64,000 bases of DNA, taken from assembly GCA_016717115.1 (NCBI GenBank), contig JADKGE010000001.1:573598-637597 (forward strand), read 5' to 3'. Below, one piece after another: positions 2,808-24,867 of this stretch. The position numbers and the translations under genes are program-made. The notes below the pieces were generated by a model. The model did not search any database and was not told the DNA's origin. It was given only the letters and a program-made list of their open reading frames with translations. This DNA is from Actinomycetota bacterium (GTDB lineage Bacteria; Actinomycetota; Actinomycetes; S36-B12). Position 1 is the first letter of the stretch. Each line of letters starts with the position of its first letter.

Positions 2808-4050
2808 TCACGGCATGCTGCTGCAGGAGCACCAGTATTGGTCGGGCGTCGGTGCGGTCAGGTGGTGCGCACGTACGTCGGGGCTGGTCTGTGGCATTCC
2901 AGTGGCCAGATGTTCCAGGCGAGCGGATAGGGCACCGATCGAGGGCGGGACGTTGCATCCGTCGGCGAGGATGGCGGCCCCGGCGCCGGTGGTTGTTGGG
3001 AGCCGGTCGCTTTCGGCGAAGGCGGGGATGAAGTCACCCCAGGAATCGCCGGACACGTTGGTGTTCGGGTCGAAGGGATCCGCCGTGCGTGTCATGTCCG
3101 GTCTCGATGTCGTGCTGCAGCTCGGCCGGGCTGGCGGCCCAGGCGGCCGTTCGCAAGTACGGGCGGGCAACGGATCCCGTGGCATGGCACAGGGTGACGA
3201 AGAATCGTGCTGCCCGGAAGCCAGGAACGACCGGGATCTGCGGCACATGGGGCAGCACCGGCACCGTGGGGGTGATCGGCTTGCGCGGGCTTGTTCGGCA
3301 CGGTGGGGCACCGTGGGGTGATCGGCTTGGCGGGCTTGTTCGGCACCGTGGGCACTGTGGGGTGATCGGCTTGGCGAGGGCTTGTTCGGCACGGTGGGCA
3401 CTGTGGGGGTGATCGGCTTAGCGGGCTTGTTCGGCACCGTGGGCACAGTCGGCGTGATCGGCACCGCCGGGCGGTTCGGATCAACCGGGTCGACAGGCTC
3501 GGGGACAGCGCAGCCGTTGGCCAGGATGTCAGCCGGAAGCGTGTTGTTCAAGCCCGGGAAGTCCCCCACGGCAAGGATGAGGGTCGCCCCAGTTGTCACC
3601 TGATTGGCTTGTCGCGGGATCGAAGACGGGCCCCGGCGTGCCCCCGTCGTGACCGTTGATGGCCGACTCAGCGACAGTGATCAGGGTGTAGATTGGCTAC
3701 CGGAACTCGTTGCGTGGCACAGCGTGACCTTCTCGTTGCCTCGAGCTTCGTTGGACGTGGTGGATGCCGCATCGGAGGTGGTGGATGCTGCGCATCGGTC
3801 CGGCGCGGGCAACTCGGTTACGGGGGCGAGGGGCGCCGTCGCGGGGATCCGGGAAGATCGGCAACGGAAGGGGGCTGGGGGACGTTACGGCCACTTCAGG
3901 TGGGGAGTGGGGCGAGGCGGGCACTTGCGGTGTTTGGGACAAAAGTGAGGTCGCCGTCGCCAAGCAGGCGGCTATGAAGGTTCCTAGACGGACGATCGGC
4001 CCACGGTACTGGTGTTCCCACTGCTCTCCTCCCTTGAGAGGGTGCACCAA
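2808..4050 (-). pseudogene. secreted proline-rich tandem-repeat protein, multiple frame disruptions
   Basis: Signal-peptide-like N-terminus (RLGTFIAACLATATSLLSQTP). A KVTLCHATSSGS motif is followed, in another frame, by IYTLITVAESAINGHDGG. The module DP..SGD.WGD.IPAF...ILA.GC.VP occurs twice. A 15-aa PAKPITPTVPTVPNK repeat block is present. The coding sense jumps between all three frames. Confidence 0.5.
3251..3465. repeat. about 45-bp tandem repeat, about 4.5 copies (units 3291-3335, 3336-3381, 3382-3426 and partial flanking units)
   Basis: Direct reading shows the unit TTGTTCGGCAC(C/G)GTGGGCAC(T/C)GTGGGGTGATCGGCTTGGCGGGC repeated head to tail. Unit lengths are 45, 46 and 45 bp. On the minus strand the unit encodes PAKPITPTVPTVPNK. 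Confidence 0.85.
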
Positions 4051-4098
4051 CTCGACAGGCCGCCAGACCCGGGCAGGTGCGAGGTCTTAGGGAAGTCG

Positions 4099-4698
4099 CT
4101 ACTTGACGTTCTGGATGAGTTTGGCGCTTTGAGCCACACGCAGGGCGCAGGACTCCATCCCGGCCTGGTCCCTCAGCAGCCGGCGTCACGATCTCGCCTG
4201 CGGGCCGGCCGGAGAGCCGTCCAGCCGCCCAGCACCCGGGTGCCGATCTTGATGGTCGACGCGGCGATGACGAGGCCATCGTTCCAGCACACGCGGGTCG
4301 CGCGGTCTGCCGGGATGGCATTCTCCCGAGTCAGAGTGCATTGGTAGCCCTTGCTGACGTCCGCGCCGAAGACCGGACCGGCCGACAGCTTCCGAGGACC
4401 GCCTGCGTGAGCGGCTTCGGATTCGTGTAGTGGAGCAGGGTGACGCCGGCGCGCGGCTCGGTGCTACCCGGGGCGAGGAACGACTGCGACCACATTGTCG
4501 GCGTCAACTTGACGACTCCGACGGTCAAAGGGCACGGCCACCCCGGTTGCCGTGGCGGCCTGCTCGGACGTGAGCAGCCAGTCGGTGTTGTTCGGCGGCA
4601 GTTGCTCTGCACTCGCCGAGGACCGACGCCGATCGCGAGTGCAGCCGCCACGTTGGAACGATGACAAGAGCGCCAAGACGTCTGGACACCGTGCGCAT
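4099..4698 (-). pseudogene. small secreted Cys-containing protein of unknown function, multiple frame disruptions
   Basis: SD AGGAGA precedes ATG at 4698. The N-terminus MRTVSRRLGALVIV looks like a signal peptide. Protein-like sense continues in other frames: NTDWLLTSEQAATATGVAVP, TLLHYTNPKPLTQAVLG, FGADVSKGYQCTLTRENAIPADRATRVCWNDGLVIAASTIKIGTRVLGGW and LLRDQAGMESCALRVAQSAKLIQNVK*. Confidence 0.4.
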
Positions 4699-4834
4699 GA
4701 CTCTCCTGAAGTAGCAGTAGACCTGAGGGGAAGGTACCACCAGGAGGACTTCTGACGCGATGCCCCAAAGGGTCCCGTCGACCCGCTGCTGTCCTTATGA
4801 TGACGATGTTGGAGTGGTCTGACCGGGAGGCACC

Positions 4835-5544
4835 ATGAATCGTTCGCGCACGCGCAAGGTCGTCGTGGCCACCGCACCTCGCGGGTGGGCTCATCGCCGC
4901 CGTCGCGCCGCAGGCCTCGCCGCCCCGCGGACTCGCAAGGCGGATCTGGTGGTTGGGTGCCCTTCTTCGCGAGCGGCTCATTGCAGAACAGCGCATGGGC
5001 CAACTGCGCCGATCCGATCGTGCTGACCGTCGACCCACGAGCCCCTGCCGAAGGCGCAGCAGAAGTCCGCCAAGGACGCGTTCGCCGCATCCGTGAAGAA
5101 CTGGGCGGCTCAAACCGGACTTCACTTCACGTTCGGCGGTGTGACACCCGTGAACTACAACGACACCACCTACGTCATCAGCCCTGTCGATGGCGTCGAT
5201 CGCCCTCGTCACATGTACATCACGGTGCTGACCAACGACGAGTCCACCTACCTCACTGACACCGTCGTCGGGTTCGCCATGCCGACGACCGTCAATGCTG
5301 CGAACAAGGAGATCATCCAGGCGGAAGGGGCCTTCCGTACCGACTACGTCGCCGGAAGCACCAAGGAGCAGCGCGTCGCGGTGTTCATGCACGAACTGGG
5401 ACACGCTCTCGGACTCGGCCACAGCAGCAGCAAGGGCGACATCATGTACCCCATCGTCGACAAGCAGACCACGCGCTCGGCCCCGGCGACATCGCCGGCA
5501 TTCAGGCCATCATGCGCCCCTGCGCCACCACCCCGACCCCCTAG
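4835..5544 (+). pseudogene. matrixin-like (metzincin) zinc metalloprotease, about 4 frame disruptions
   Basis: SD GGGAGG precedes ATG at 4835. Zinc-binding and Met-turn motifs read HELGHALGLGHSSSKGDIMYP. The C-terminal LGPGDIAGIQAIM is readable only in another frame, and the N-terminal region also needs frame changes (for example at the CCCC run near 5040). Confidence 0.7.
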
Positions 5545-5887
5545 AGGGGCCGCTCGCGACGCGGCAACCTGCTGACCACCGCGGCGTAGGAGCCGTCGAC
5601 CGCGTCAGGTACCTCGTCGTCGGGGATTCCCGCGCCGACTCGCAGCGTGTTCCAGCCCGAACGACCGAGATAGGCCATCACCGACGCATCTTGGGGGTAC
5701 CGGGTGAGCCATTCATTGGCCTCGTCCCGCGAGTCGGCGCACTTCAGTCCGACGCTGTCGCTGCCGGGCTCGCCGAGGAAGGCGAAGATCCGGCTGCCCA
5801 CCTTGACGACGATGGTGCCCTCCCACGGCTCGTCTTGCCAGGCACCCGCATGGCGAGGCAGTGCTCGAGCACGTCGTCGGCGTCCAT
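5541..5887 (-). pseudogene. MmcQ/YjbR-family protein, one frameshift
   Basis: The C-terminal ORF 5541-5801 reads SRIFAFLGEPGSDSVGLKCADSRDEANEWLTRYPQDASVMAYLGRSGWNTLRV. The ATG at 5887 (MDADDVLEHCLAM) is in a different frame. The length of 347 nt is consistent with one missing base near 5845. Confidence 0.6.
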
Positions 5888-5888
5888 G

Positions 5889-7422
5889 TCAGCCGTCGTA
5901 GTAGTCGCTCAGCCGCGCGAGCAGCTGAGCGTGTGCGGGGCGAGCGCCGCCACCCGATCGAGCCAGGCCCGATCGGTGGCGAGGGGCTCGGGCGGTGGGA
6001 CGACGAGCGTCGTGGCTCCGCGGCCGTGAGTGCTCGATCCAGGGCATCGGCCGTGCCGGGCGGTCCGGATGGCATGTCGGGGATGAACTCGAGACGGTCG
6101 AGGTCCCGTCCCCCTGAGCGGGCGCGGATCACGGCTGCACCCGGATCGCGATGGACGTCGTCGAGCACGGCCATCCCCTCCGCCCACGACATCGTCGCCT
6201 CGCGGCGCTGCGCGGGATTGGACGGGAGGAGGTCATCCGGCAGCGTCATCACGATCCCCCTGCGTCGACCCGCGACCTGGATCGGCTCGATGCCGTCGGC
6301 CCCCGCAGCAGTGAGCAGGAGGTCATCCCGTACACGGGGCGTCCGCCGACGACGACCAGCGTGATGTGCGGCTCGCGGGCCGCGATGAGCGAGCGGTACG
6401 GATCGGCGTCGCGCGCCGAGTGGACGGTGAGGTCGGCGAGCGCGCCTGCCTGGATGCGCCCGACAGGCACCTGCCACGCCCGTTCCATCGTGAGGCCGGG
6501 ATTGCGGGTTCCGAGTTCGCACAGCTCCAGTGGCGTCAGCTCACCGCCCAGCTGCTCACGGTTCCACAGGTCGGCGACTTTCAACTCCCACAGCAGGCTG
6601 CGCGTCCCCGACGGCGCCCAGTCGGAGCCCAGGCAGACCAGGTGGCCGTGCTCCCGCGCGGCCACGATGTCGGTCGTCCCGCCGTAGAGCCACACGTTCG
6701 AGAACGGTGACCAGACGATGGCGCCGGGCGGCGACCAGTCCGCGTAGTCGGCGGCGGTGAGGGCGGTGGAGTGGATGCCGATGAGCCCCGGTCCTACGCA
6801 GTGGTGCGCGGCGAGCTCGCCGTACTCCTTGCGCAGGGCCGCCGAGGTGCCCTCGGCCAGGTGATAGAACAGCGAGACGCCGCCGGCCATCTCCGTGGCG
6901 TAGCGGTTCAACTGTCCGGCCTCGCCCTTGAGCACCGACTGGCGAACGGTGTCAGGCCCGCCGACGGGGTCCTTCTCCACGTTGCGGAGCATCCACCCAG
7001 GGAAGGCGCGGGTGGTGGGGAGACCCCTGAATGGAGGTGACGCCCCGACGACGGCCTTCACCTCGGCATACCGGAGTGCGGCGGCCGCCGCCGCGATGCC
7101 CAGCGCCTGCGCGGGACTCGAGATGTCCCGACCGTAGGTCTTGGCGGTGGGCCATTGGTAGCGCGTCGTGTACGGGGTGGTTCTCGGCGCCTGCCAGAGC
7201 GGGAGGGGTGTTGTAGGCGAGATGGTTGTGCAGGTCCATCAGGCCGGGCGTGATGATGCTTCTCGTCGAGACGAGGCGGGCATCTGCGTAACCAGCGAGC
7301 CGCCGGCGCCTAGATGACTGCACCGCCTCGATCCGGCCATCGCGAATGTAAACGCTGGCGCGGGGCTCGACGCAGCGATCATCGTCGAAGGTGACCACGG
7401 TGCCCGTGAGGATGAGAGCCAT
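5889..7422 (-). pseudogene. amidohydrolase-family protein, at least 5 frame disruptions
   Basis: SD AGGAGG precedes ATG at 7422. The N-terminus reads ITPGLMDLHNHLAYNT. Other frames carry LPLWQAPRTTPYTTRYQWP, GVTSIQGSP, SLFYHLAEGTS, VCLGSDWAPSG and VVGGRPVYG. The C-terminal LSDYYDG* ends 1 nt before the YjbR start. Confidence 0.6.
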
Positions 7423-7480
7423 CGCTACCTCCTGTGCCAGCAGAGGGGCTCGACGCTAGCCCAACCGTGGCTCGCGCACC

Positions 7481-8293
7481 ATGGGCGCGGAGCGCGGCTA
7501 CGCTCCCAACGTGGGCGGGAAGAGGCGCGAGGATGACGAGTTGTGCGCCGTGGTTCTCGCCGCCGGACGGGGCACGCGCCTTCGACCGCTGACCTCGGTG
7601 CTGCCGAAGGCGCTGTGCCCGGTCGGCAACGTCGCCTTGGTCGACCTCGCGCTCGCATCGGTGCGGCCCTTCGCGGCGGACGTCGCCGTCAACGTGCACC
7701 ACCTGTCCGCGGCGGTCGTCGACCACCTGTCACGGGACCGGCCGGAGGTACACGTGTCGGACGAGACCGACCGGCTGCTGGGATCTGCAGGCGCCTTGGG
7801 CAGGCTCAAGCCCTGGATCGACGGCAGGGCCGTGCTCGTGCGCAACAGCGACGCCTACCTCACCGGGTCGCTTACGGAGCTTGTCGAGGGATGGGACGGC
7901 CAGCGACCCCGGTTGCTGGGCCGTCGGGGGCGTCCGCCGCCGACTTCGGGGACATCCAGTACGTCGGAGCCTGCCTTCTGCCCGCCGACATCGTCGCCGG
8001 CTTGGCGGAGCGGCCCTCCGGGGCTGTACGACCTCGTCTGGCGGCCCCACTGGGAACGAGGCGAGATCGAGTTCGTCATGACGACTGGGGAGTTCGTCGA
8101 CTGCGGCACGCCTCGCGACTACCTGAGGGCGAACCTCGTGGCGAGCGGTGGCAGGAGCGTCATCGGCGCGGGTGCGCGTGTGCTCGGGTCGGTCGTGCGC
8201 ACGGTCGTGTGGCCTGGGGGAGAGGTGGCGGCGGACGAGGTCCTGCATGACTGCATCCGAGTCGGGCGGGATCTCACCGTCGATGCCCGCTGA
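7481..8293 (+). CDS. sugar-phosphate nucleotidyltransferase-family protein
   Basis: N-terminal signature AVVLAAGRGTRLRPLT. The true start may be TTG at 7541, which has a GAGGA SD 7 nt upstream. The middle section (about 7920-8020) reads better in another frame (see findings). Confidence 0.7.
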   Translation: MGAERGYAPNVGGKRREDDELCAVVLAAGRGTRLRPLTSVLPKALCPVGNVALVDLALASVRPFAADVAVNVHHLSAAVVDHLSRDRPEVHVSDETDRLLGSAGALGRLKPWIDGRAVLVRNSDAYLTGSLTELVEGWDGQRPRLLGRRGRPPPTSGTSSTSEPAFCPPTSSPAWRSGPPGLYDLVWRPHWERGEIEFVMTTGEFVDCGTPRDYLRANLVASGGRSVIGAGARVLGSVVRTVVWPGGEVAADEVLHDCIRVGRDLTVDAR

Positions 8294-10032: not shown

Positions 10033-10128
10033 GCGGGCAGTGTAGGCGGCGTGCTGTGATCGTTGACAGCAATTCGCCGTCGCCTCACACTGACGATGCA
10101 TCTCGCTGGGGGCGAAGGGAGTTCGCGT

Positions 10129-11790
10129 ATGCCCGCCGTCGGATTCCCCATGGCGGATTTCGCGACGAGCCGTCGCATGATGACCGCTCTGGCAGAGGGT
10201 CCCTTCACGCAGCTGGAGGGCGAGCCGCTGACGACGTCGTTGTCGGTGCCGTGGGAGCGGCTTCTGCCCGGGCCGGTCGGCAGCCGCTTCAGCACCGACG
10301 TCGGGGGTCCGGGGCGACCTCGTGCTCGCCCGCTCGTGCTCGACACCGAGTTCGAGTCCGTCTCCTACGACGATGTCGGTTGCCCGAGCGGCCTGGAGGA
10401 CCTGCTGGGGGACCGTCGCTTCCTGGCGCAGCACGCGTACGCCATCGCGGCATCGACCCTCGACCTCTTCGAATCGACGATGGGCCGACGCCTGGGCTGG
10501 AAGGCGCGAGGCCACCGCCTGGCGCTCAAGCTGTACGAGCCGATCCCGTTCGACGAGACCGGCTACGACGGGCAGCGGTGCGAGATCCGGTTCGGGCATC
10601 GCAAGGACCCTCGCGCTCGTCGGCACGTCCCCCTGGCCCTCTATCGCGATCTGATCACCCACGAGGTGACGCATGCGATCATCGACGGCTACCGGCCCCA
10701 CCTCGCCGACCCCGACGGCACTCTCGACGAGCACGCCATCCACGAGGCCGTCGCGGACGTGGTCGCGATGCTGTCGGTGTTCTCCTCGACCGAGCGGGTC
10801 GCCGAGCAGCTGAACGCGGCCCAGGCCACGGCGGAGGAGGGAATCTCCGACGACGCCCTGGTGCAGACCGGCCTGTTCGGAGTCGCCGACGGCCTGCTCA
10901 CACGTCAGGCACTTCGCCGTTCGGTGACCGACCGCGTGCCGCCCGACTGGCGGTCGGAGCGGGAGCCCCATCGCCGCGGCGCCGTCCTCGTCAAGGGCCT
11001 GATGGACACCGTGCTCACCTTGTGGCAGACGCGCATGGCTCGCCCGGGCGGTCGGGCGAGCGAGTACCAGATCGCCGACTCCGGGGCGAGGGTCGGGCGT
11101 CAGGTGCTCGCCATGCTCATTCGCGGGATCAGCTACACCCCCCCGATCGACGTCACCTTCGACGACATCCTTCGCGGCATCCTCGCGGCCGACGCGGTCG
11201 TCGTGCCCGACGACGATCATGACTACCGCGGAACGCTGCGCGCCGCCTTCGGACCGCTGGGGATCACGGCTCCGGACGACGATCTCGACGGCCTGTCCGG
11301 GCTGCGCGATCTGCACTACCCGGTGCGGCTGTCCTCCCTGGCGTCCGACCCCGAAGAGGTCTACCGGTTCCTGTGGGAGAACCCCGCCATGCTGCGCGCG
11401 GCCGCGATCGATCCTGACATCCCCCTGGTCGTCGAGCGTGTTCGGCCGAGCATGCGGGTGGGTCCTGATGGCTTCATCGTCTCCGAGATCGGTGCGAGCT
11501 TCGTCCAACAGGTGCCGATGAGCGCCTACGACGCCCGCCGGCGGCTGGGGCTGCGGGTGAAGGGCAACATCGTCCTGCGCGGCGGCGGGCTCATCCGTTT
11601 CAACGAGGGTGGGCGGCTGGCCTTCGCGGCCATCAAGCCAGTGCTCGACGCGGAACGCCAGCAGGCACGGCTCGACGAGGCGGCCGGGCCGTCGATGCTC
11701 GGGGTCGACGCGGCCGATGTGGCCACGCGCCGCGCCGGCGTGTTCAGCGAGATGCACGCATCGGCGCGGCGACTGGCCGACGACAGGTAG
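10129..11790 (+). CDS. cytoplasmic thermolysin-like (HExxH...E) putative zinc metalloprotease, 553 aa, unassigned family
   Basis: SD GAAGGGA precedes ATG at 10129. The motif HEVTHAIIDG is followed about 24 residues later by IHEAVADVVA, which resembles the thermolysin HExxH / NEAxSD arrangement. There is no signal peptide. The intact frame ends 4 nt before the convergent caspase gene. Confidence 0.6.
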   Translation: MPAVGFPMADFATSRRMMTALAEGPFTQLEGEPLTTSLSVPWERLLPGPVGSRFSTDVGGPGRPRARPLVLDTEFESVSYDDVGCPSGLEDLLGDRRFLAQHAYAIAASTLDLFESTMGRRLGWKARGHRLALKLYEPIPFDETGYDGQRCEIRFGHRKDPRARRHVPLALYRDLITHEVTHAIIDGYRPHLADPDGTLDEHAIHEAVADVVAMLSVFSSTERVAEQLNAAQATAEEGISDDALVQTGLFGVADGLLTRQALRRSVTDRVPPDWRSEREPHRRGAVLVKGLMDTVLTLWQTRMARPGGRASEYQIADSGARVGRQVLAMLIRGISYTPPIDVTFDDILRGILAADAVVVPDDDHDYRGTLRAAFGPLGITAPDDDLDGLSGLRDLHYPVRLSSLASDPEEVYRFLWENPAMLRAAAIDPDIPLVVERVRPSMRVGPDGFIVSEIGASFVQQVPMSAYDARRRLGLRVKGNIVLRGGGLIRFNEGGRLAFAAIKPVLDAERQQARLDEAAGPSMLGVDAADVATRRAGVFSEMHASARRLADDR

Positions 11791-11794
11791 CGAC

Positions 11795-12636
11795 CTAGTG
11801 CCCCAGGGGTCGCTTCTTGGTCGCGGACGGAGCCTCGAGCTGCGGGATCTGGGAGAAGCGGTCGGCCTTGAGCCCGGCCCGAACGGCGGTCAGCAGCTCT
11901 GCGCGCGTCGCATCCGGCTTCGCCTTGAGCGCCTTCAGGAGGTTGTACGTGAAGGCTCCGCTCGATCGACCGTTGAAGCTCGCGTCGGACGACGTCTGCG
12001 CGGCCTTGCAGGCGGCGAACAGCACCGGCTCCTGGACGGCGATCCCCCTCTTGCGCCGGAAGAACTTGTCGCCGAGCTGCACCACTTCGCGCTCCGCTAC
12101 GCCGTCTACGCCGATCGGCGTCGGTGGCGGCAGGAACTTTGGCCGCCGGCCCTGGAGGATGTCCATCGCCTTCAGCCCCGTCCCGCTGTGGCACGTGTCG
12201 AGGAAGGCCTCCACCAGCACATCCGCCGGTACCCGCGCGAAGAGCGCATGCAGCTCGTCGTCGACGATCACCGTGTCGAGATCCCACGCGTCCCCGTCGG
12301 GGCGAGGTCGTAGGCCACGAGCGCCTCGTCTGCGCGATCGAGCTCGTCGCCATTGGCGTCGGGCACCTGCGTGCCGTGGCTCGAGTAGGTGAAGACGATG
12401 TGCTTGACCTTGCCGGCGACCGCGAGGTCGACGATCGCGTTGAGCCGGGCCATGATCGCCGCCTTCGTCGCCTTGTCGTCCGTCAGCGTGACGACATCTC
12501 GCGACCCGAACCCGTAGCTCTTCCGCAGCAGCGACGCCATGTCCCTGGCGTCGTTGACGCAGCCGTAAAGCCAGCTCGCCATCGGCAGGTTGGCGAACTG
12601 GTTGATGCCGACGCAGAGCGCCCGACGATCGGTCAT
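11795..12636 (-). pseudogene. metacaspase-like peptidase C14 protein, one frameshift
   Basis: SD GAAGGGA precedes ATG at 12636. The N-terminus reads ALCVGINQF..LYGCVNDARDM and the catalytic His lies in FTYSSHG. After the frame change near 12300 the sequence reads WDLDTVIVDDELHALF, with the catalytic Cys in LDTCHSGTG. The length is 842 nt. Confidence 0.75.
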
Positions 12637-12659
12637 GACTGTTCCCTTCGTGGTGCGTG

Positions 12660-13515
12660 TCAGATGCGGAACGCCGGCGCGGGAGAGGAACCTCCGGTTG
12701 GCGGGGGCCAACGGTGTAGTAGTTGGGGGTCTGCGACGGGGCATCTGCGCGCTCGTCAACTCCCGGAGCGACTTGAGCGAACCGCTGAAGGCGCCGTCGT
12801 GCCATACCTTGAGCAGCTGCGCGGTGAAGAGGCTGTTCACCCGGCCATCGAGGCTCTCCTGGTTGTCCTGGCAGCCCGAGACGAGGGCGATGGTCGCCGT
12901 CACGTCGGCCTTGGTGCGCGGGAGCACCCGGCTCTGGATGGCGTCGTACGTGCGCCGGTGGGACTTGTAGGTTCGCTCCTCCACGTCGAGAGGCATGCGC
13001 TTGCTGCGCACCTTGGCTGTCGCCAAGGGTCGCGGAATCGCCCAGGGTGGCGGTGCCCCTTGGAGACCGTGCCGCTGTGGCACGAGTCCGAGAGCATGAC
13101 GATCCGCGACTTCGCCGGGAACAGGGACCACAGCGCCCAGAGCTCGTCATCGACGAGCATCCGGTCGTACAGCACCCACGTCTCGTCGTACTGGTCGGCC
13201 GACTCGCCGACCTCGCCGCTCGCGACTCGCCTCGTCGCCGTTGCGGTCGGGCACCTGCGAACCGTGCCCCGAGTAGGTCAGCCAGAAGATGTCGCCCGCG
13301 ACCATCGACGCGGCCGCCTTGGTGATCGCCGCGACCACCTTTCGGGACGTCGCCGCCTCGGTGAGGAGCAACGACGTGGAGTAGCCGAGCGACTGCGCGA
13401 CGGACTGCATGGCGCGGGCGTCGTTCTCGCAGGCGCTCAGCGTGCCTGGCCAGCCGCCGTACGACGCCGGATTGACCCGATTCAGTCCGCCGTGAAGGGA
13501 GTAGCCGTTCGCCAT
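12660..13515 (-). pseudogene. caspase-family (peptidase C14) protein, at least 5 frame disruptions
   Basis: SD AGGAGC precedes ATG at 13515. Frame 0 reads YSLHGGLNRVNPASYGGWPGTLSACENDARAM and LTYSGHG. Another frame reads YDRMLVDDELWALW and MLSDSCHSGT. Back in frame 0 the sequence reads IALVSGCQDNQESLDGRVNSLFTAQLLKVW. The C-terminal pieces QTPNYYTVG and PAFRI* lie in two further frames. Confidence 0.7.
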
Positions 13516-13547
13516 GGTGCTCCTGACGCTCAAAGGGGAGTGGCTCG

Positions 13548-14953
13548 TCAGCGACGGCGCTTGCGCGAGTCGAGGACGGTGATCAGGTCAGAGACGGGCG
13601 TCATGGCCGCCGAATCGTCGGCGGCTACCACCTCGAGTCGGTAGACGCCCTCGGCGAGGGGCGGCACGGTGGAGCGGAAGGAGCCGTCGGCCCGACGACG
13701 CATCGTGCGCCTACGCACGACTCGACCCGTGGCCACGTCGACCAGCGTGGCGCGCGCCGACGCGGCCGGACCCACCGTCGAGGCCACGATGTCCAGCTCC
13801 TGCCGGGCGCTGAGCACGGTAGGAGCATCCAGCGAGAAACTGTTGAAGGGTGCATCCTTGTACTGGCTCAGGCGCTTGCGCGTGACGGTGCCGACGACAT
13901 GGGACAGCGCCGCCTCGGCGTTCTGGAGCGAGCCGTGCTTCGTCGACACATAGGTCTCGCGCGGGGTGTCGGACAGCTCGATCGGGGTGGCCGAGACGCG
14001 GGGCACGGTGCCGTCGCCGCCCATGTCCTCGCCGCCCAGGCTCGTGAACATCGTGACCTTGTTGCCGACCAGCCGCGCCGACTGGTCCGTCGGCTGGAAG
14101 ATGCCGACGATCGGCGTGATCTGGTAGCCGCCGTCGCGATAGGCGGACTGTGCCTGATGAGCCGTGACCGCCGCCTCGATATCGCGATGGAAGCGCAGGG
14201 CGTCGGCGGCCTTGGCCTTGTCGATCCCGGGGAGCGACGCCTCACCCGGCCGGACGAGGTGCCGCCCATCTCGACCGACGGATAGATGGGCAGCAGCTGG
14301 TGCATCGACGGGAAGGAGCGCAGGAGCCCACTGAGGTCGACCGAGATGGGGCCGAAACCCTTGTCCATCCCGTTGACGAGGGTCGTGACCGCATTCAGCG
14401 ACCCGCGATACGGCGTGCCGAACGTGATGAGGTGCCGCGTGATCTTCCAGCCGTCATGCCGCTCGAGGAAGTCGCGCGCGACGAGACCGCCCATCGAGTG
14501 GGCGAGGAGGACGAGCTTGGCGTCCTGGTTCCCGCTCGCCTTCTTCCAGGCCGCGAGCCACTTGGGTGCGCGATCGGCAAGCTGACGGCCGTGGACCCGG
14601 TTGTCGCGCCGCCAGTCATACGGGTAGTCGAACCAGTTCTTGCCCTCCTCGAGGGTGAGCTCGGCGAACAGGCGGGTCTTGATCTGCGTGTAGCCGTCGA
14701 TGGCCCACAGCCCGGGGATGAGATGCAGGTCCTGGACGAGGCGCGGCGCGGTGACACCGTCGCCGAGGTCGTCCTTCGACGGATCGTCCTTGCCCCGGAT
14801 CTCGAGGTCCTTGATGCTCCCGCCCAGGGTGAACAGCGCCGAGATCGCGGACTGCGGAGTGATGGCCCACACGTCCTTGCCGTTCTTCTGGAGCACGCTG
14901 CCGGTGATGCCGGGCAGCAGGATGATCAGATCACCGAACTTGCGTCGTGCCAT
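13548..14953 (-). pseudogene. LCAT/PGAP1-like alpha/beta-hydrolase (putative lipase/acyltransferase), one frameshift
   Basis: SD GAGGAGG precedes ATG at 14953. Motifs are FDYPYDWRRD, the nucleophile elbow LLAHSMGGLVA, and FGTPYRGS. After the frame change near 14265 the sequence reads GDGTVPRVSA and KHGSLQN. The C-terminal section of about 100 aa looks like a beta-sandwich. The length is 1406 nt. Confidence 0.7.
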
Positions 14954-14962
14954 GAGTCCTCC

Positions 14963-16111
14963 TCATTCCGCTTGCTGCAACTCGCGACGCTCGGCGGTGC
15001 CGACGTCCCCGTAGAAGACCGCGCCGAGGCCGGCGAGATCGGCCCGGCCCCATAGCTCCTGCATCGTGGCCCGTCTGGCCTCGAGTACCGCCCGACCGAC
15101 GTTCTCCTGGTCCACGAGGGCCCCGTAGAACGTCTCGACGAAGAGTGCGGCGGCGCGGACGGTCACCGGCCAGCCGAACCCCAGGCAGCCGCTGGCTCCC
15201 GCCGAAAGGAAGGCCGCCGCGACGCCGTTGCCGCCGCCACGAGGGGTGGCCAGGCGTCTGTCGGGAGCGGACCTCGCGCTCCAGCAGGCGCTCGTGATGG
15301 CCAAGTACGGCGGCTTCTGCCACGGCAGATCGACAATGCTGCGGGTGAGCAGCGGGCCGTCTGCCAGCTGGAGCCCGCTCAGACCCGGTCGCCCGGGCAG
15401 GAAGCCCCCATGCCCGGAGAAGTGAAGGACGTCGTAGGCAGTCGCGGCGACGTGCCCGGCGAGGGACGCGTGCGTCGCGGCGTCGCCCTCGAGGACGTCG
15501 AGTCGCAGGTATCCCATCTCGCCGAGCCGCCGCAGTGCCGCGAGCTCCGAGTCGACGTCGCTGAGATCCCTGGACGGGTCGACCACCGCCAGGACGGCGA
15601 TTGTCGTGTCCTCGTCGCGGGGGTCACGTTCGGGCCGTGGCCGCGTGCGCGTCGTAACGATCCGGCCGACCGGCCACTTGAGCACGAGCGGCCCCTCGGT
15701 GTCCGCCATCAGCTCCCACGGCAGGTTCAGGGCCGTCTCGTCCGCGTCGATCATCAGTGCCGTCGGCTCGTGCTCTGCGAGGTAGTCACTGCCGGAGGCG
15801 CCGAGGAACGTGTCGTACAGCCGTCGTCCCAGACGGGTCGCCACCCGCGTGGCCTCCTTCGGGTCCGAGCGAAGGCCCTGCGACCAGTCGTCCAGCACGA
15901 CCAGATCGGCTTCGATCGCTCGCTGAGCGGGGCCCTTCAAGGCGATGTCGCGCCGCCAGGTGACGGGGGTTCCCTCCTCGTGCATGCGGACGGAGAAGTG
16001 CTGGGTCTGCTCGGTTTTCAGGGCGTCGGATGCGGCGCGCGCAACGCTGATCGTGACGACGCGCGGCATCGTGGTGCCGGTCTCGCGTCGGTATCGACCC
16101 AGGAACGCCAT
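14963..16111 (-). CDS. CHAT-domain protease (clan CD), 382 aa
   Basis: SD GGAGA lies 7 nt before ATG at 16111, which is internal to ORF 14963-16261. Motifs are LPWELM, the catalytic His in VLHFSGHGG and the Cys in LAITSACWS. About 150 aa at the N-terminus are unassigned. Confidence 0.8.
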   Translation of the reverse strand: MAFLGRYRRETGTTMPRVVTISVARAASDALKTEQTQHFSVRMHEEGTPVTWRRDIALKGPAQRAIEADLVVLDDWSQGLRSDPKEATRVATRLGRRLYDTFLGASGSDYLAEHEPTALMIDADETALNLPWELMADTEGPLVLKWPVGRIVTTRTRPRPERDPRDEDTTIAVLAVVDPSRDLSDVDSELAALRRLGEMGYLRLDVLEGDAATHASLAGHVAATAYDVLHFSGHGGFLPGRPGLSGLQLADGPLLTRSIVDLPWQKPPYLAITSACWSARSAPDRRLATPRGGGNGVAAAFLSAGASGCLGFGWPVTVRAAALFVETFYGALVDQENVGRAVLEARRATMQELWGRADLAGLGAVFYGDVGTAERRELQQAE

Positions 16112-16268
16112 CGTCTCGTCTCCGGACTCGGGGTACGAATGTGCTTGGCAGCGTAAGGCCTGTCGAGTCGCTGCGGAAGAGCCCGCGCCGGGGTGCGAGA
16201 TCACCCGATCCACCGCCCGTCCGGCGACCGCGGTGGCACACTGATGGTCCACAGCGAGCACCTAGGGG

Positions 16269-16907
16269 ATGCAGATGGATCCGAACAGCACTGCCGTCGT
16301 ACTCGTCGAGTTCCAGAACGACTTCACCAGCGAGGGCGGCACGCTGCACGGTGCCGTGAAAGAGGTCATGGACCAGACGAGCATGCTCGACAACACTCAC
16401 AAGGCCGTGGCGGCGGCACGCGCGGCAGGGGCGACGATCGTCCATGCGCCCATCCAGTTCGCCGAGGGCTACAACGAGATCACGTCCACCCCGTACGGCA
16501 TCCTCAAGGGAGTCGTCGACTCCAACTCGTTCGTCAAGGGCTCGTGGGGAGCTCAGATCATCGATGAGCTCGCGCCGGAGGACGGCGACATCGTCCTCGA
16601 GGGCAAGCGCGGGCTCGACGCGTTCGCGAGCACCAATCTCGACTTCATCCTGCGCAGCAAGGGCATCAAGACGGTCGTCCTCGGCGGCTTCCTCACCAAT
16701 TGCTGCGTCGAGTCGACGATGCGATCGGCCTACGAGAAGGGCTTCGAGGTGGTCACGCTCACCGACTGCGTCGGCGCGACCAGCCCAGAGGAGCATGCCA
16801 ATGCCATCACCTATGACTACCCGATGTTCTCCAAGCCGATGACGGCGACCGAGTTCGCGGAGACGCTCGCAGGTGCGGAAGTGGACGACGCCTCGCGCGG
16901 CTACTGA
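16269..16907 (+). CDS. isochorismatase-family cysteine hydrolase
   Basis: Family-typical sequences are AVVLVEFQNDF, KRGLDAFASTNLDFILRSKGIKTVVLGGFLTNCCVESTMR, and the catalytic Cys context. Confidence 0.85.
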   Translation: MQMDPNSTAVVLVEFQNDFTSEGGTLHGAVKEVMDQTSMLDNTHKAVAAARAAGATIVHAPIQFAEGYNEITSTPYGILKGVVDSNSFVKGSWGAQIIDELAPEDGDIVLEGKRGLDAFASTNLDFILRSKGIKTVVLGGFLTNCCVESTMRSAYEKGFEVVTLTDCVGATSPEEHANAITYDYPMFSKPMTATEFAETLAGAEVDDASRGY

Positions 16908-20220: not shown

Positions 20221-20382
20221 GGCTTTCCTTCCTAGGGGTGTACGGCTCGTGCACTTCTACGGTCCACCCGCCAGCGGGGGTCTCGCATCAGGGGAAACAC
20301 CGGGTTTCCGGCGTCGGGCGTCCCCCGTGTCGAGGGACTTTCGGCCCTGCCGTCGCCGCCGTCGGGCGGAACAGCCTTAGGT

Positions 20383-23109
20383 GTGCTCGTGGGTCGTAGC
20401 GCTGAGCTGACTCAGCTCGACCGCCTGCTGGACGCGGCCCGGCAGGGCAGCGGTGGTCGCATCGTCGTCGTCGGAGATCCGGGTATGGGCAAGTCGACCC
20501 TGCTCGCCGCGGCACGCCGCCGCGCGAGTGGTCGCGGCATGCAGGTGGTCCAGGTGACGGCGACCGAGGGGTCCGCAGGTCATGCGTTCTCCCTCGTCGA
20601 CGATCTCGAGCGCATCTCGGGCCGACAGCCCTCACTCGGCGACGGGGTGGCCGATCGCGGGGACGCGCTGCTCGCGGAACTCACCCGGCGGGCGCTCGAC
20701 GGCCCCGTCCTGGTGGTGGTCGACGACGCGCACTTCGCTGATGCGTCCTCCCTGATCGCCCTGGCGGTGGCAGCCGAGCGCGCTGACCAGCTGCCGGTCG
20801 GCGTCATCGTCGCCCTGGCCGGTGACGGCGGCCCCGGAGAGCGCTTCGCCTCGTGGCCGCACCTCTACCTGAGTCCCCTCACCCGGGAGGCCTCGCTGAC
20901 TGTCTTGCGGGCGGCCGCGGGGCCCAACCTCCCGCAGCCCGCCGTGTCCATCGTCGACGCCTTCGGCGGCAACCCCTGCGCCCTGACGGAGGCCCCTCGG
21001 CTGCTGACCCCTGACCAGATCTGCGGGCGTGACGCGCTGCCGAGCATCATGCCGGTGCCTGCCGCCCTGCAGCATGCCTGGAGCGGACGGCTCGACGGGT
21101 TGTCCGCAGGCGGGCAGCGGGCCGTGGTCGACGTGGCCATCGCGGGAGCCCGTAGCGACGTCCTCGCCGCCATGGCGTCGGCCACGGGTTGGCAGGACGC
21201 TGACCTCGACGAGCTCGTCGAGGCCGGCCTGGCAGTGCGGGACCCGACAGGTGGGCCGCCCCGGCTGACGACGGTGGTGCGCGACGTCGTGCTGGCCCGC
21301 ACCCGAGGCGCGACCGTCAGGGACGGGCATCGCCGCGCTGCGGAGGCGGCGGAGGCGCTCGACCTGCCGCCCAGGATCGTCATCGACCACCTCGTCCAGT
21401 CGGTGCTGACGGCCAATGCGGGCGTCGCCGCCGCCCTGCAGCGACAGGGTGAGCGCGCCGAGGCATCTGACCACCTCCGCATGGCCAGCGACGCCTGGCA
21501 GGCCGCCGCTCGCCTGTCCGTGACGCCGGCGGAACGGGTGGACAGGGCACTCCACGCGGCGCGGCTCATCATCTCCAACGGGCTCGACTACGCCGACGTC
21601 GACGATCTCGTCGAGCTCCTGGCCGGGGCCGAGCTCGACGAGGAGTCGGCCTGCTGGGTCGATTGGCTACGAGCCCTCCAGCGATCACACACGGATCCGG
21701 ACGCGGCCCTGACCGCGCAGTGGTCGACGATCGTGCGGGCCCGTGCGTCGTCGCCGCACACGGTTCTGATGTTCCTGTGGGACGCGGCGATGAACGCGTG
21801 GACCCTCGGCAACGTGGTCGAGGGACTGCGAGCGGCACGGGAGTACGCCGAGCTGGAGCGCCGCCTGGAGCCGACCCTCGAGGGCGTCGAGCCGCCGTGG
21901 GCCGGCACCGCCCTCGTGGCAGCGGGACTGTTCCAGGCCGGACAGGTGGCCGAGGCGATGCCCCTTCGAGCTGCCGCGATCGCGGCAGCGGCGGGGGTTG
22001 ATCCCGCGGCCGAGCCCTTCGACCGGTTGCTGTCGATGGTCTTCCTGGACGATGTGTTGCTCGACACCAGCGCCGCGTCCGGCGACCGGGCGGTCGCGGC
22101 ACTGCAGCGGATGGTGGATGAGTCGGCGCCGCTGGCGTGCCTGTACGGGATCCAGGCGTGGCGGGCCCGAGCGAGCGGCGACTGGCCCGCCGCTCGCGAC
22201 CTCCTTGCCGTGGGTCGACCGGTCGCCGTCACGACGTGTGCCACCGGCGTCCAGCTCGGCATGGCAGCCCTCGCCGCGGAACTGGCCGGCATGGCGGGGG
22301 ATGACGACGTGCTCCTCGAGGAGAGCACTGCGCTCCGCGACGCCGCCATGCGCCAGCGGGATCGACGTAGGCTCGCCACGCTGGATCGGGCCCTGGGCCT
22401 GCGCGCCCTGGCCGATGGTCGCCGGGAGCCCGCGATCGCCTCGTTGTCCGCCGCGGCCGACAGTCCGTTCCTCGGGCGAGGCCTTCGAGACGGCGTCCTG
22501 CCCGCCCGCGTCGACCTCGTGGAGGCGCTGGCGAGGTCCGGTGACCTCGAGGCGGCGGCCGTTCGTGGTGAGGAGGTGCGCGCCCACCTGCTGGCCATGA
22601 GGGATCCGGCGGCCGATGCCCTGTCGGCCCGGGTCGCGGCGCTGGTCTCGGCCGGCGATGAGGCGGCGGGCTGGTACGAGGCAGCCGTCGCCGCTCATGA
22701 GGCGGCACCGGACCCGTTCGAGCACGGGCGCACGCTCCTGCTCCAGGGCGAGCACCTGCGGCGCATGCGCCGACGCACGCATGCCCGGGCCGCCCTGCTG
22801 CAGGCGGAGCGAGCCTTCGACCGGCTGGGCGCGCGACCCTGGCTGGCGCGCACGCGCACCGAGTTGCGTGCTGCCGGAGGCCAGCCGGAGGAGGCCGAGG
22901 GTCTCGATGTCCTGACCCCGCAGGAGACGGCAGTGGCGACCGCGGTCGCCGAGGGACGCAGCAATCGCGAGGTGGCGGAGTTGCTCTTCCTGTCTCCCAA
23001 GACGGTCGAGTACCACCTCGGCAGCGTCTATAGGAAGCTCGGGGTGCACGGCCGGGGCGCGTTGGCCCGCCGGATGATGGAGGACGCGAAGCGCACAAGC
23101 GTGTCGTGA
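20383..23109 (+). CDS. LAL-type (large ATP-binding LuxR-family) transcriptional regulator
   Basis: 908 aa. It has an N-terminal P-loop (VVVGDPGMGKST), a long helical-repeat middle section, and a C-terminal LuxR HTH (LTPQETAVATAVAEGRSNREVAELLFLSPKTVEYHLGSVYRKLGV). Confidence 0.85.
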   Translation: MLVGRSAELTQLDRLLDAARQGSGGRIVVVGDPGMGKSTLLAAARRRASGRGMQVVQVTATEGSAGHAFSLVDDLERISGRQPSLGDGVADRGDALLAELTRRALDGPVLVVVDDAHFADASSLIALAVAAERADQLPVGVIVALAGDGGPGERFASWPHLYLSPLTREASLTVLRAAAGPNLPQPAVSIVDAFGGNPCALTEAPRLLTPDQICGRDALPSIMPVPAALQHAWSGRLDGLSAGGQRAVVDVAIAGARSDVLAAMASATGWQDADLDELVEAGLAVRDPTGGPPRLTTVVRDVVLARTRGATVRDGHRRAAEAAEALDLPPRIVIDHLVQSVLTANAGVAAALQRQGERAEASDHLRMASDAWQAAARLSVTPAERVDRALHAARLIISNGLDYADVDDLVELLAGAELDEESACWVDWLRALQRSHTDPDAALTAQWSTIVRARASSPHTVLMFLWDAAMNAWTLGNVVEGLRAAREYAELERRLEPTLEGVEPPWAGTALVAAGLFQAGQVAEAMPLRAAAIAAAAGVDPAAEPFDRLLSMVFLDDVLLDTSAASGDRAVAALQRMVDESAPLACLYGIQAWRARASGDWPAARDLLAVGRPVAVTTCATGVQLGMAALAAELAGMAGDDDVLLEESTALRDAAMRQRDRRRLATLDRALGLRALADGRREPAIASLSAAADSPFLGRGLRDGVLPARVDLVEALARSGDLEAAAVRGEEVRAHLLAMRDPAADALSARVAALVSAGDEAAGWYEAAVAAHEAAPDPFEHGRTLLLQGEHLRRMRRRTHARAALLQAERAFDRLGARPWLARTRTELRAAGGQPEEAEGLDVLTPQETAVATAVAEGRSNREVAELLFLSPKTVEYHLGSVYRKLGVHGRGALARRMMEDAKRTSVS

Positions 23110-23163: not shown

Positions 23164-24867
23164 GTGGATTCCGAGGGGATCGACGCGGGACGGCGGCGCT
23201 GGCAGGAGCGATTCGATGCCGCGGTCGCGTCCGGGCAGGTTCGCGCGGCCGACTTCACCACGCTGAGCGGAGTCGACGTCGCGCCCGTGTACGGGCCGCC
23301 GCCCGAGGTCGACGATCCACGGATGGAGTCCATCGGCTGGCCGGGGGAGTTCCCCTTCACGCGCGGCCTGTACGCCACCGGCTACCGCGGGCGTACGTGG
23401 ACGATCCGCCAGTTCGCGGGCTTCGGCAACGCCGAGCAGACCAACGAGCGGTACCGCATGATCATGCAGAGGGGCGGCGGCGGCCTGTCCGTCGCGTTCG
23501 ACATGCCCACGCTGATGGGCCTGGACTCCGACGATCCGAGGAGTCTGGGCGAGGTGGGACACTGCGGGGTCGCGATCGACTCGGCCTTCGACATGGACGT
23601 CCTGTTCGATGGCATCCCGCTCGACCAGGTCACGACCTCGATGACCATCTCGGGCCCGGCGATTCCCGTCTTCTGCATGTACGTGGCCGCGGCGGAGCGG
23701 CAGGGCGTTGACATCTCGTCGCTCAACGGAACGCTCCAGACCGATATCTACAAGGAGTACATCGCTCAGAAGGAGTGGCTGTTCCCGCCGGAGCCGCACC
23801 TGCGGCTCATCGGGGATCTCATGGAGTTCTGCGCCAAGCGGATCCCCTACTACAAGCCGTTGAGCGTGTCCGGCTACCACATCAGGGAGGCCGGCTCGAC
23901 TGCCGCGCAGGAGCTGGCCTTCACCCTCGCCGACGGGTTCGCCTACGTGGAGCTGGGCGTGTCACGGGGCCTGGACGTCGACACCTTCGCCCCCGGTCTG
24001 TCCTTCTTCTTCGACAGCCACGTCGACTTCTTCGAGGAGATCGCCAAGTTCCGGGCCGCCCGCCGCATCTGGGCCCGATGGCTGCGCGACGTCTATGGCG
24101 CGACCACGGAGCGGGCCCAGTGGCTGCGGTTCCACACCCAGACGGCGGGCGTCTCGCTCACCGCCCAGCAGCCGATGAACAACGTGGTGCGCACGGCCGT
24201 GCAGGCGCTCGCCGCGGTGCTCGGCGGCACGAACTCCCTGCACACCAATGCCCTCGACGAGACGCTCGCCCTGCCGACGCAGGAATCGGCGGAGGTGGCG
24301 CTGCGAACGCAGCAGGTGATCATGGAGGAGACGGGGGTCGCGAATGTCGCCGACCCGCTCGGCGGATCGTGGTACGTCGAGGAGCTGACCACGAGGCTGG
24401 AGGACGAGGCCGAGGCGATCTTCAGGCAGATTCGCGAGATGGGGGAGTCTGGATCGGTCAGTGCCATCGGCCCGATGACGTCCGGCATCCTGCGGGGCAT
24501 CGAGAACGGCTGGTTCACCGGGCACATCGCTGAGGCGGCGTTCGACCATCAGCGAGCGCTCGAGACGGGGACGAAGCGGATCGTCGGCGTGAACTGTCAT
24601 ACCGACTCCCTTGCCAAGGACCTGGAGATCCTGCGGATCAGCCGGGACGTCGAGCGTGACCAGGTGCGGGCCCTCGGCGAGCGCCGGCGCGTGCGCGACG
24701 ACGCTCGCGTCAGCCGGGCACTGGCCGCGGTCGCCGAGACGGCGCGAGGCGAGGGCAACCTCATCGAGCCCATCCTCGAGGCGGCCCGCGCCGAGGCGAC
24801 GCTGGGCGAGATCTGCGGCGAGCTACGCGGCCTGTGGGGCGGTTACACGGAGAACGCCCACTTCTAG
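23164..24867 (+). CDS. acyl-CoA mutase large (catalytic) subunit, isobutyryl-CoA mutase IcmA-like
   Basis: 567 aa. The sequence FPFTRGLYATGYRGRTWTIRQFAGFGNAEQTNERYRMIMQRGGGGLSVAFDMPTLMG shows the ATGY...RQF pattern of IcmA-type rather than MCM-type (ATMY...RQY) enzymes. There is no B12-binding domain. The TAG stop at 24865-24867 lies inside the IS target duplication. Confidence 0.85.
   Translation: MDSEGIDAGRRRWQERFDAAVASGQVRAADFTTLSGVDVAPVYGPPPEVDDPRMESIGWPGEFPFTRGLYATGYRGRTWTIRQFAGFGNAEQTNERYRMIMQRGGGGLSVAFDMPTLMGLDSDDPRSLGEVGHCGVAIDSAFDMDVLFDGIPLDQVTTSMTISGPAIPVFCMYVAAAERQGVDISSLNGTLQTDIYKEYIAQKEWLFPPEPHLRLIGDLMEFCAKRIPYYKPLSVSGYHIREAGSTAAQELAFTLADGFAYVELGVSRGLDVDTFAPGLSFFFDSHVDFFEEIAKFRAARRIWARWLRDVYGATTERAQWLRFHTQTAGVSLTAQQPMNNVVRTAVQALAAVLGGTNSLHTNALDETLALPTQESAEVALRTQQVIMEETGVANVADPLGGSWYVEELTTRLEDEAEAIFRQIREMGESGSVSAIGPMTSGILRGIENGWFTGHIAEAAFDHQRALETGTKRIVGVNCHTDSLAKDLEILRISRDVERDQVRALGERRRVRDDARVSRALAAVAETARGEGNLIEPILEAARAEATLGEICGELRGLWGGYTENAHF

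Follow-up and report, generated by a model that had tools for sequence, protein, structure and literature searches.

Four adjacent genes for a CHAT protease, an LCAT-like hydrolase and two small caspases in an Actinomycetota genome resemble bacterial protease-triggered suicide modules

What might three clan-CD cysteine proteases and one lipase-like enzyme, encoded side by side, do for a bacterium? The question is raised by a stretch of 64,000 nucleotides (nt) from an Actinomycetota bacterium (GenBank assembly GCA_016717115.1, contig JADKGE010000001.1, positions 573,598 to 637,597), hereafter called the window, in which four adjacent genes encode a CHAT protease, an LCAT/LPLA2-like α/β-hydrolase, and two small caspases (C14a and C14b). 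A preliminary description made from the letters of the window had proposed a candidate undescribed module for suicide or defense, in which a cascade of proteases would feed a membrane-attacking lipase. By analogy with characterized systems, the operon looks like a compact variant of bacterial protease-triggered cell-suicide or antiviral modules, and on balance the evidence tips modestly toward a cytoplasmic, protease-gated module for suicide or abortive infection.

The four genes are consecutive open reading frames (ORFs) or ORF fragments on the minus strand and form a tight operon. The CHAT cysteine protease gene (14963–16111; 382 amino acids) is followed by the LCAT/LPLA2-like α/β-hydrolase gene (13548–14953; 468 amino acids when repaired), the gene of C14a, a GSU0716-type small caspase (12660–13515; 285 amino acids when repaired), and that of C14b, a metacaspase-like small caspase (11795–12636; 280 amino acids when repaired). 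The gaps between them are 9, 32, and 23 nt in this order, and a purine-rich sequence resembling a Shine-Dalgarno site precedes each of the four starts (GGAG, GAGGAGGA, AGGAG, and GAAGGGA). The window has about 69% GC, and the GC content of the operon matches that of its flanks. The operon promoter is presumed, by position alone, to lie in the 157-nt divergent intergenic region (16112–16268) between an isochorismatase gene on the plus strand and the CHAT gene on the minus strand; scans for sigma-70 consensus promoters and for intrinsic terminators across the operon found nothing. No transmembrane segment or obvious signal peptide was found in any of the four proteins (maximum KD19 score 1.42). 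These proteins are accordingly predicted to be cytoplasmic, and a reading as secreted toxins was rejected on the same grounds. The preliminary description had given the same four genes and coordinates, the same gaps with a Shine-Dalgarno site before every start, and the same lack of export signals. Its domain calls (CHAT, LCAT, and two Peptidase_C14) were borne out by Pfam searches, and the motifs that it quoted are present and invariant or nearly so in alignments of orthologs.

The same description had cautioned that three of the four genes are frame-disrupted, which proved to be an artifact. Seven frame-breaking indels are found in the window copy: one in the LCAT-like gene at 14259 (a C missing between 14259 and 14260), five in C14a at 13221, 13059, 12741, 12707, and 12683, and one in C14b at 12302 (a C missing between 12302 and 12303). 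A 4.6-kb contig from a wastewater metagenome (L042), which its k127 contig name suggests to be a short-read assembly, shares 99.7% identity with window positions 11724–16310 and differs from them by 8 substitutions and 7 indels. Each of these indels lies in a C/G run or a GAGAG repeat, and L042 encodes all four proteins intact (382, 468, 285, and 280 amino acids for CHAT, the lipase, C14a, and C14b, respectively). Intact genes are likewise confirmed by the contigs L130 (28 kb, syntenic over ±10 kb), L131, and L132. Indels confined to homopolymers are a signature of long-read errors. Because the ORFs of L042 are intact and every indel falls in a homopolymer or GAGAG run, the frame disruptions are, on this comparison of sequences, errors of assembly or sequencing. 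That three of the four genes are decaying pseudogenes, as seven frame-breaking indels might suggest, is exceedingly improbable given these positions of the indels and the intact ORFs in four other contigs; moreover, the catalytic residues are invariant among orthologs, and other genes of the window show similar frame switching, including an amidohydrolase gene that is spread over 4–5 frames when compared with L130. Since homopolymer indels are frequent (7 in 4.6 kb against L042), gene calls anywhere in the window are likely to be error-prone. The repaired proteins were used for all later protein analyses.

The CHAT protein of the window is 100% identical to a database protein of an "Actinobacteria bacterium" metagenome-assembled genome (MAG), and small metagenome contigs encode the same protein. 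Two other database proteins, a truncated lipase (P0061) that is 100% identical and has the IPO93 locus-tag prefix of the window copy, and an intact, 100% identical C14a (P0170), sit on a 128,699-bp contig of "Actinobacteria bacterium" MAG records that is distinct from the contig of the database CHAT protein. Because these two lie on another contig, the bin may hold a duplicated region or a second strain.

For the first gene of the operon, the match to Pfam CHAT (PF12770) is strong (E = 8.6e-30; 104.6 bits against a cut-off of 24). The catalytic dyad, H234 in HFSGHG and C276 in SACWS, is invariant among 30 homologs (alignment A1), as are the LPWEL motif and a P-x3-RDP loop (PRPERDP) between the two halves of the protein. 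An AlphaFold (AF2) model (pLDDT 83.7, pTM 0.87) aligned in Foldseek over 370–380 of its 382 residues with the protease modules of Csx29/TPR-CHAT and separase (E = 2e-13, TMq 0.62–0.64). In this model, the N-terminal region of about 150 residues, left unassigned in the preliminary description, is the N-lobe of a separase/Csx29-type CHAT fold and no separate domain. Since this part belongs to the CHAT module, the protein is a bare protease that lacks a sensor domain; Pfam gives CHAT only, the module covers the full length, and no SAVED domain was found. Two longer members of the family (P0299 and P0301) were considered as sensor fusions and set aside, as their extensions have no Pfam domain and look like miscalled starts or frameshift fusions. 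The C-terminal tail (window 14963–14995) is conserved, with the consensus RRDLATA or RRD[LIV]ATA[AS], and the motif is duplicated in longer-tailed orthologs. It ends in small residues, which recalls ssrA-type degrons. In a profile search of 1.84 billion representatives, the family proved small, as only about 25 clusters (at 50% identity) matched from end to end. For generic multi-domain CHAT proteins, the match to its profile runs from about position 30–90 to about 368.

The first part of the LCAT-like protein matches Pfam LCAT (PF02450; E = 3.5e-13, 50 bits against a cut-off of 21), with weaker matches to PGAP1 and other α/β-hydrolase models. The lipase triad of S153 (in an invariant HSMGG nucleophile elbow), D314 (GDGTVP), and H340 is conserved in alignment A2, as is a YDWRRDNR motif, and the family is large, with more than 4,000 matches. 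A structural model built on the ortholog P0050 (84% identical to the window protein; pLDDT 77) has lysosomal phospholipase A2 (4X92; E = 9e-12) and LCAT as its best matches in the PDB, and it shows a C-terminal Ig-like β-sandwich. Model confidence is low at the loops that carry D314 and H340 and at the interdomain linker, which fits a latent state without showing one. From this model, the protein is proposed to be a latent phospholipase effector.

Pieces of both caspase genes match Peptidase_C14 (PF00656) in Pfam, and the two products belong to different types. C14a has a full-length match to GSU0716 (PDB 3BIJ; E = 1.8e-72) and belongs to a family of more than 6,000 members, including the intact P0170 in other assemblies and a Humibacillus homolog (P0244). 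C14b is nearer to metacaspases (yeast Yca1, 4F6O; E = 3.8e-24). Among protease-linked members, the His/Cys dyads are invariant in both types (H84/C146 of C14a in alignment A4 and H87/C149 of C14b in alignment A3). The p20–p10 linker of C14a is otherwise variable and holds a conserved [RK]-x-[ML]-P site (A4), and that of C14b holds an invariant RR-x-[RK]-F-x-x-P motif (A3). Specificity for Arg/Lys is established for metacaspases. Because these basic linker sites are conserved and fit such a specificity, they are candidate maturation sites.

The linkage of these protein families extends far beyond the window. When one genome per GTDB species was scanned with the CHAT alignment, 37 loci were found in Actinomycetota, Chloroflexota, Myxococcota, NC10, Acidobacteriota, Bacillota, Methanomassiliicoccales, Methanosarcinales, and Promethearchaeota. 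In 21 of the 30 loci that extend 1 kb or more to either side of the CHAT gene, this gene has a same-strand small-caspase gene as its neighbor, and these 21 include members from Actinomycetota, Chloroflexota, Myxococcota, NC10, Methanomassiliicoccales, and Methanosarcinales, among others. Caspase genes of the C14a type tend to follow the CHAT gene closely, with the exception of L013, where the caspase gene closely precedes it. In distant loci, those of the C14b type as a rule directly precede the CHAT gene, and the stop and start codons often overlap. The arrangement is conserved elsewhere, as at least eight related loci of actinobacteria, some of them with unrelated flanks, have the order CHAT-LCAT-C14. 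A lipase gene between CHAT and caspase was seen only in an actinobacterial clade (L001/L006, L002/L008, L005, L007, L009, L030, and L050), and all four genes stand together in L030 as well as in three nearly identical contigs (L042, L130, and L132).

The nine CHAT loci (of the 30) that lack a caspase have other partners. Across all CHAT loci, whether or not they hold a caspase, several kinds of partners were observed. A gene for an amidohydrolase of about 520 amino acids may directly follow the CHAT gene. Among distant family members, the partner may be a metallo-β-lactamase (MBL) hydrolase that matches the AVAST Avs1a model (NF041809; 6e-50), or a set composed of a second CHAT protein, a 398-amino-acid protein, and a STAND (NPHP3_N/AAA_16)-WD40 NTPase. 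In the larger versions of the system (L016, L018, L020, L023, L032, L034, and L041), a conserved protein of about 395 amino acids (in L034, at 12700–13896) goes with the second CHAT and the STAND-WD40 gene; it has no significant Pfam match, its sole match being a faint one to a Card1-like endonuclease (E = 0.004). In a deltaproteobacterial MAG (L026; 11088–18395), a CHAT and C14b pair is followed by two large genes, which encode a 1160-amino-acid fusion of C14 and DUF7379 (α/β-hydrolase-like) and a 1270-amino-acid TPR-CHAT protein. A Ser/Thr kinase gene adjoins the CHAT-caspase pair in a myxococcal relative (L003/L010).

The hydrolase is likewise closely tied to proteases. In a survey of 80 metagenome loci and three looked-up loci with iterated CHAT and C14 hidden Markov models, a CHAT and/or C14 gene was present in 40 of the 42 LCAT-family loci that include 1.5 kb or more of sequence on either side (22 with CHAT only, 8 with C14 only, and 10 with both), mostly within 100 nt and on the same strand. 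All 10 sampled partner proteases were confirmed by Pfam, and their parts include TPR, TPR-S, TCAD7, AAA_16/STAND, and CBM9-like domains. Loci with a small C14, an LCAT-like, and a large C14 gene also exist. The LCAT-like family, of about 465 amino acids, is thus an almost obligate partner of clan-CD proteases. In Actinoplanes aureus (L045; JADQTO010000022.1, 90754–106172), genes for CHAT-SIR2, nSTAND1, an LCAT-like protein, and a C25-like clan-CD peptidase stand in a row; in this cultured actinomycete, a relative of the lipase module that comes with sensors is open to experiment. On pBsp27S5a, a conjugative plasmid of Bradyrhizobium sp. 27S5 (L133; 91207–106577), a CHAT gene comes after an LCAT-like gene within an island that contains AbiEi/AbiEii, ImmA/IrrE, S8 and C1 peptidases, a metallophosphoesterase, UDG, and a caspase. 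Across the surveyed loci, the parts of the module recombine with established defense components (STAND-WD40, Avs1a-like MBL, TPR/TCAD7, and SIR2). The genomic context of the relatives points to a function in conflict or defense.

The surroundings of the operon in the window consist of genes for a flavin monooxygenase, an NTP transferase, an isochorismatase, an FAD/Fe-S oxidase, a glyoxalase, a LuxR-type AAA_16 regulator, a methylmalonyl-CoA mutase, and an integrase of the insertion sequence (IS) type. These flanks are syntenic in L001 and L130. A Pfam scan of the ten ORFs nearest the operon found no WD40, TPR, or SAVED protein, no Cas10 or CD-NTase signal generator, and no gasdermin, which is also lacking in the operon itself. 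Only one of the ten products is of an NTPase type, a LuxR-type regulator (AAA_16-GerE) whose gene lies at a distance of about 4 kb. This regulator gene (20236–23109, plus strand) and the IS-type integrase (rve) gene (24823–25920, minus strand) lie 4–9 kb off, and no link to the module was seen. In L001, the closest complete relative, two genes that are absent from the window stand between the isochorismatase and CHAT genes (3312–7824). They encode a 200-amino-acid protein and a 1315-amino-acid protein of the VWA/DUF5979/DUF7601 surface-protein type. The latter was rejected as a sensor because of this type and its absence from the window.

Two neighboring genes may be accessories. A gene on the plus strand at 10063–11790, with a probable start at 10129 (553 amino acids), encodes a cytoplasmic protein with a thermolysin-like zinc motif (HEVTH...HEAVAD). 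It is convergent with C14b, with stop codons 4 nt apart, and follows C14b in the same manner in L001/L006, L007, L030, L050, L052, and L131. It is present in all close relatives that have C14b and absent from those with C14a only, and one distant homolog was found in an LCAT and CHAT locus (L092). Matches of the protein to Pfam Peptidase_M4 (E = 0.2) and to thermolysin in the PDB (E = 0.8) were not significant. With low confidence, its sequence suggests that it may be a fourth peptidase of the module. The amidohydrolase gene (5892–7422, minus strand; 512 amino acids when intact) lies 4.4 kb beyond the operon on the same strand, with three genes between. The pieces of its window copy are 97–100% identical to the intact gene of L130, and in the N-terminal part of about 135 residues the frame breaks leave a 63% match. 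In 13 loci, a homolog is the immediate neighbor of a CHAT, C14, or LCAT gene, in orders such as amidohydrolase-LCAT-C14a (L051), C14a-LCAT-amidohydrolase (L089), and C14b-CHAT-amidohydrolase (L033, L035, and L036). The protein matches the NCBIfam models of guanine, 8-oxoguanine, and deoxyadenosine deaminases below their cut-offs. It may be a further, displaced effector or accessory of the module.

How might such an operon act? In the mechanism that we propose, CHAT would be kept inactive until a trigger arrives; candidates are a phage factor, a sensor whose gene lies outside the operon, and the loss of an inhibitory interaction of the RRDLATA tail. As speculation from sequence conservation, this tail may be the most obvious candidate for a control element. 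Active CHAT would be the initiator and would cut its operon partners. C14a and C14b would be processed at the conserved basic sites of their p20–p10 linkers, as SAVED-CHAT processes PCaspase, and would then be active executioners with broad Arg/Lys specificity. The lipase would be licensed through cleavage by CHAT, the caspases, or both, as LcCaspase licenses LcHydrolase, and would go on to degrade membrane phospholipids. The expected outcome would be cell death or arrest from damage to both proteome and membrane, before the virus spreads. A branched layout with one initiator and several latent effectors is more likely than a strictly linear one, because CHAT with C14, CHAT with LCAT, and C14 with LCAT each occur as separate pairs.

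Several observations weigh against a protease-gated suicide module. The operon lies among housekeeping genes in conserved synteny and not in a defense island, and it has no sensor of the SAVED, cyclase, CRISPR, STAND, TPR, or WD40 kinds, as the preliminary description had also noted. PADLOC gives only a generic "caspase" hit and a weak BovA hit, and nothing for the lipase. The predicted cleavage sites are guesses from conservation. For the lipase in particular, the low model confidence at the catalytic loops may stem merely from a shallow alignment, and a search for R↓G sites found a sole conserved R-G pair, R183-G184, which is within the structural PYRGS motif; conserved basic residues elsewhere, such as R366 of the interdomain linker, have no Gly after them. 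In addition, the lipase of the window (468 amino acids, 51 kDa) is considerably larger than LcHydrolase (about 33 kDa), with which it was compared by description only.

Other wirings of the same genes can be envisaged. In a strictly linear zymogen cascade, CHAT would activate one caspase, this caspase the next, and only the last protease would cut the lipase. The gene order (CHAT, lipase, C14a, and C14b) is compatible with such a chain, the characterized path from SAVED-CHAT to PCaspase is a two-step cascade (Steens et al., bioRxiv 10.1101/2023.06.23.546230), small C14-LCAT-large C14 loci exist, and LcCaspase cleaves an α/β-hydrolase (PMC12642450). However, 22 of the 42 LCAT-family loci have a single CHAT protease and no caspase, so CHAT can evidently serve the lipase directly, and relatives carry either C14a or C14b alone, for which reason the two look like alternative or parallel partners rather than successive steps. 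Linearity is therefore unlikely, and the cascade of three proteases in the preliminary description is not indicated, given the separate occurrence of all three kinds of pairs. It is similarly doubtful that the operon is a self-contained death switch without a sensor, controlled by the RRDLATA tail of CHAT and releasing several latent effectors at once. The tail might then be a pseudosubstrate in the active site or an ssrA-like degron that keeps the protease scarce, and the switch might fire when a virus perturbs host proteolysis or expression. Its effectors might comprise the phospholipase, the two caspases, and perhaps the deaminase-like amidohydrolase, in a minimal "guard" logic that may be common to bacteria and archaea, including a Promethearchaeota MAG. 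Conversely, the operon could be the incomplete effector arm of a larger system, with CHAT activated in trans by a sensor whose gene lies in another part of the genome, be it a STAND NTPase or a signal-generating enzyme. To our knowledge, every characterized CHAT protease depends on an upstream activator; distant members of the CHAT family do cluster with a second CHAT, the 398-amino-acid protein, and the STAND-WD40 NTPase, and LCAT partners often carry sensor domains. Yet the sensor-less CHAT-LCAT-C14 set is kept in the at least eight actinobacterial loci even where flanks are unrelated, and the one AAA_16 protein among the ten scanned ORFs is a GerE/LuxR-type regulator. An incomplete effector arm thus seems quite improbable.

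A different kind of explanation would take the operon out of antiviral defense altogether. Metacaspases act in proteostasis, and the four proteins might couple host stress, developmental, or quality-control proteolysis to remodeling of membrane lipids. The housekeeping flanks, the synteny across related MAGs and metagenome contigs, and the GC content would suit a physiological role, as would the lack of a sensor and of adjacent mobile-element genes. Moreover, a scan of IMG/VR viral contigs found no member of the CHAT family, and a tblastn search against plasmids found no match for the CHAT protein. Against this stands the patchy distribution of the CHAT family over distant bacterial and archaeal phyla, which suggests horizontal spread, together with the recombination of the parts with STAND NTPases, Avs1a-like MBL, TCAD7, and SIR2. 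The LCAT-CHAT pair of pBsp27S5a also sits in a plasmid defense island. A physiological role is consequently not likely, and a suicide or abortive-infection module with CHAT as the branching initiator is the reading that we prefer.

If this preferred reading is true, the operon would be among the smallest multi-protease death modules known, in which a sensor-less CHAT serves up to three or four latent effectors. An LCAT/LPLA2-type phospholipase would be an effector class not yet characterized in prokaryotic immunity, and the cascade from CHAT to caspase would extend beyond CRISPR/CBASS signaling. With four small soluble proteins, the system would be tractable for studying how a stand-alone CHAT is switched on and how proteases license effectors, and it would offer a view of how bacteria and archaea shuffle their caspase, CHAT, and hydrolase parts. 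With its sensor-less design and its LCAT-type effector, it deserves experimental study.

Among known systems, the established precedent for a CHAT initiator with a caspase as promiscuous executioner in abortive infection is the SAVED-CHAT/PCaspase pair of Haliangium ochraceum (type III-B CRISPR/CBASS; PDB 8TL0), in which SAVED-CHAT, once activated by cA3, cuts PCaspase and thereby activates it (Steens et al., bioRxiv 10.1101/2023.06.23.546230). There too, a CHAT gene is linked to a small C14 protein of about 280–300 amino acids with a His/Cys dyad. C14a and C14b are likened to PCaspase by size, dyad, and gene linkage and not by sequence, and SAVED-CHAT is only a weak structural match to the CHAT of the window (TMq 0.38). 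The operon differs in having no SAVED, cyclase, CRISPR, sigma factor, or PCi components, its CHAT being the protease module only, and in adding a phospholipase-like gene and a second caspase.

The second precedent is the module of a caspase and an α/β-hydrolase. In a computational study, caspase-superfamily domains in conflict systems were always found with a neighboring α/β-hydrolase gene (Kaur et al., 2020; PMC7159879). LcCaspase was later reported to cut the LcHydrolase zymogen of about 33 kDa at two R↓G sites, and the cut form kills cells (Evans et al., 2025; PMC12642450). The commonest protease-linked effectors are PCaspase, MBL, α/β-hydrolase, Pepco, and EACC1 (PMC12642450), and the α/β-hydrolase family is reportedly common throughout Actinobacteria, where it is linked to proteases whose sensors vary, among them β-transducin repeats and a STAND NTPase (PMC7159879; PMC12642450). 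The operon shares with these modules the tight linkage of a clan-CD protease gene to a lipase-like α/β-hydrolase. Unlike LcHydrolase, the lipase of the window clearly has the fold of LCAT/LPLA2 (PF02450) enzymes, with an Ig-like domain at its C-terminus, a pair of conserved R↓G sites was not found in its family, and the partner of the LCAT family is often a CHAT protease instead of a C14 caspase.

Likenesses to other systems are confined to single components. In structure, the CHAT protein comes closest to Csx29/TPR-CHAT (type III-E Craspase) and separase, with which it shares a two-lobed protease module and a His-Cys dyad, but the operon has none of their regulatory domains (TPR or armadillo-like) and neither a Cas7-11 partner nor a substrate of the Csx30 or cohesin type. 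Avs1 (AVAST type 1) and other protease-MBL modules likewise combine a protease with a latent effector, and distant CHAT members adjoin Avs1a-like MBL genes and STAND NTPases; the operon lacks MBL and STAND genes. Borvo (BovA) involves a CHAT protease in anti-phage defense and is the only PADLOC model touched by the CHAT protein of the window, but this match is weak and covers only part of the model (E = 3e-4; profile positions 508–665 of 711), and BovA acts as one long protein rather than as several products of an operon. GSU0716 of Geobacter sulfurreducens (PDB 3BIJ), the full-length homolog of C14a, is a structural-genomics protein. The eukaryotic LPLA2 and LCAT enzymes are secreted or lysosomal and have neither the Ig-like tail nor a protease partner. 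NCBIfam and PADLOC scans of the intact proteins gave no named system, in agreement with the preliminary description, and the match to "caspase_w_EACC1" was below threshold. Literature searches on CHAT with LCAT and on GSU0716 in defense found no named system and no paper with this composition.

Taken together, the term "undescribed" holds for the exact four-gene composition and for the two protein families involved, which are unnamed; the kind of system is already known from the studies cited above (PMC7159879; PMC12642450; bioRxiv 10.1101/2023.06.23.546230). By analogy with these precedents, the best reading is that the operon joins two known themes, a CHAT protease that activates caspases and a clan-CD protease that releases an α/β-hydrolase zymogen.

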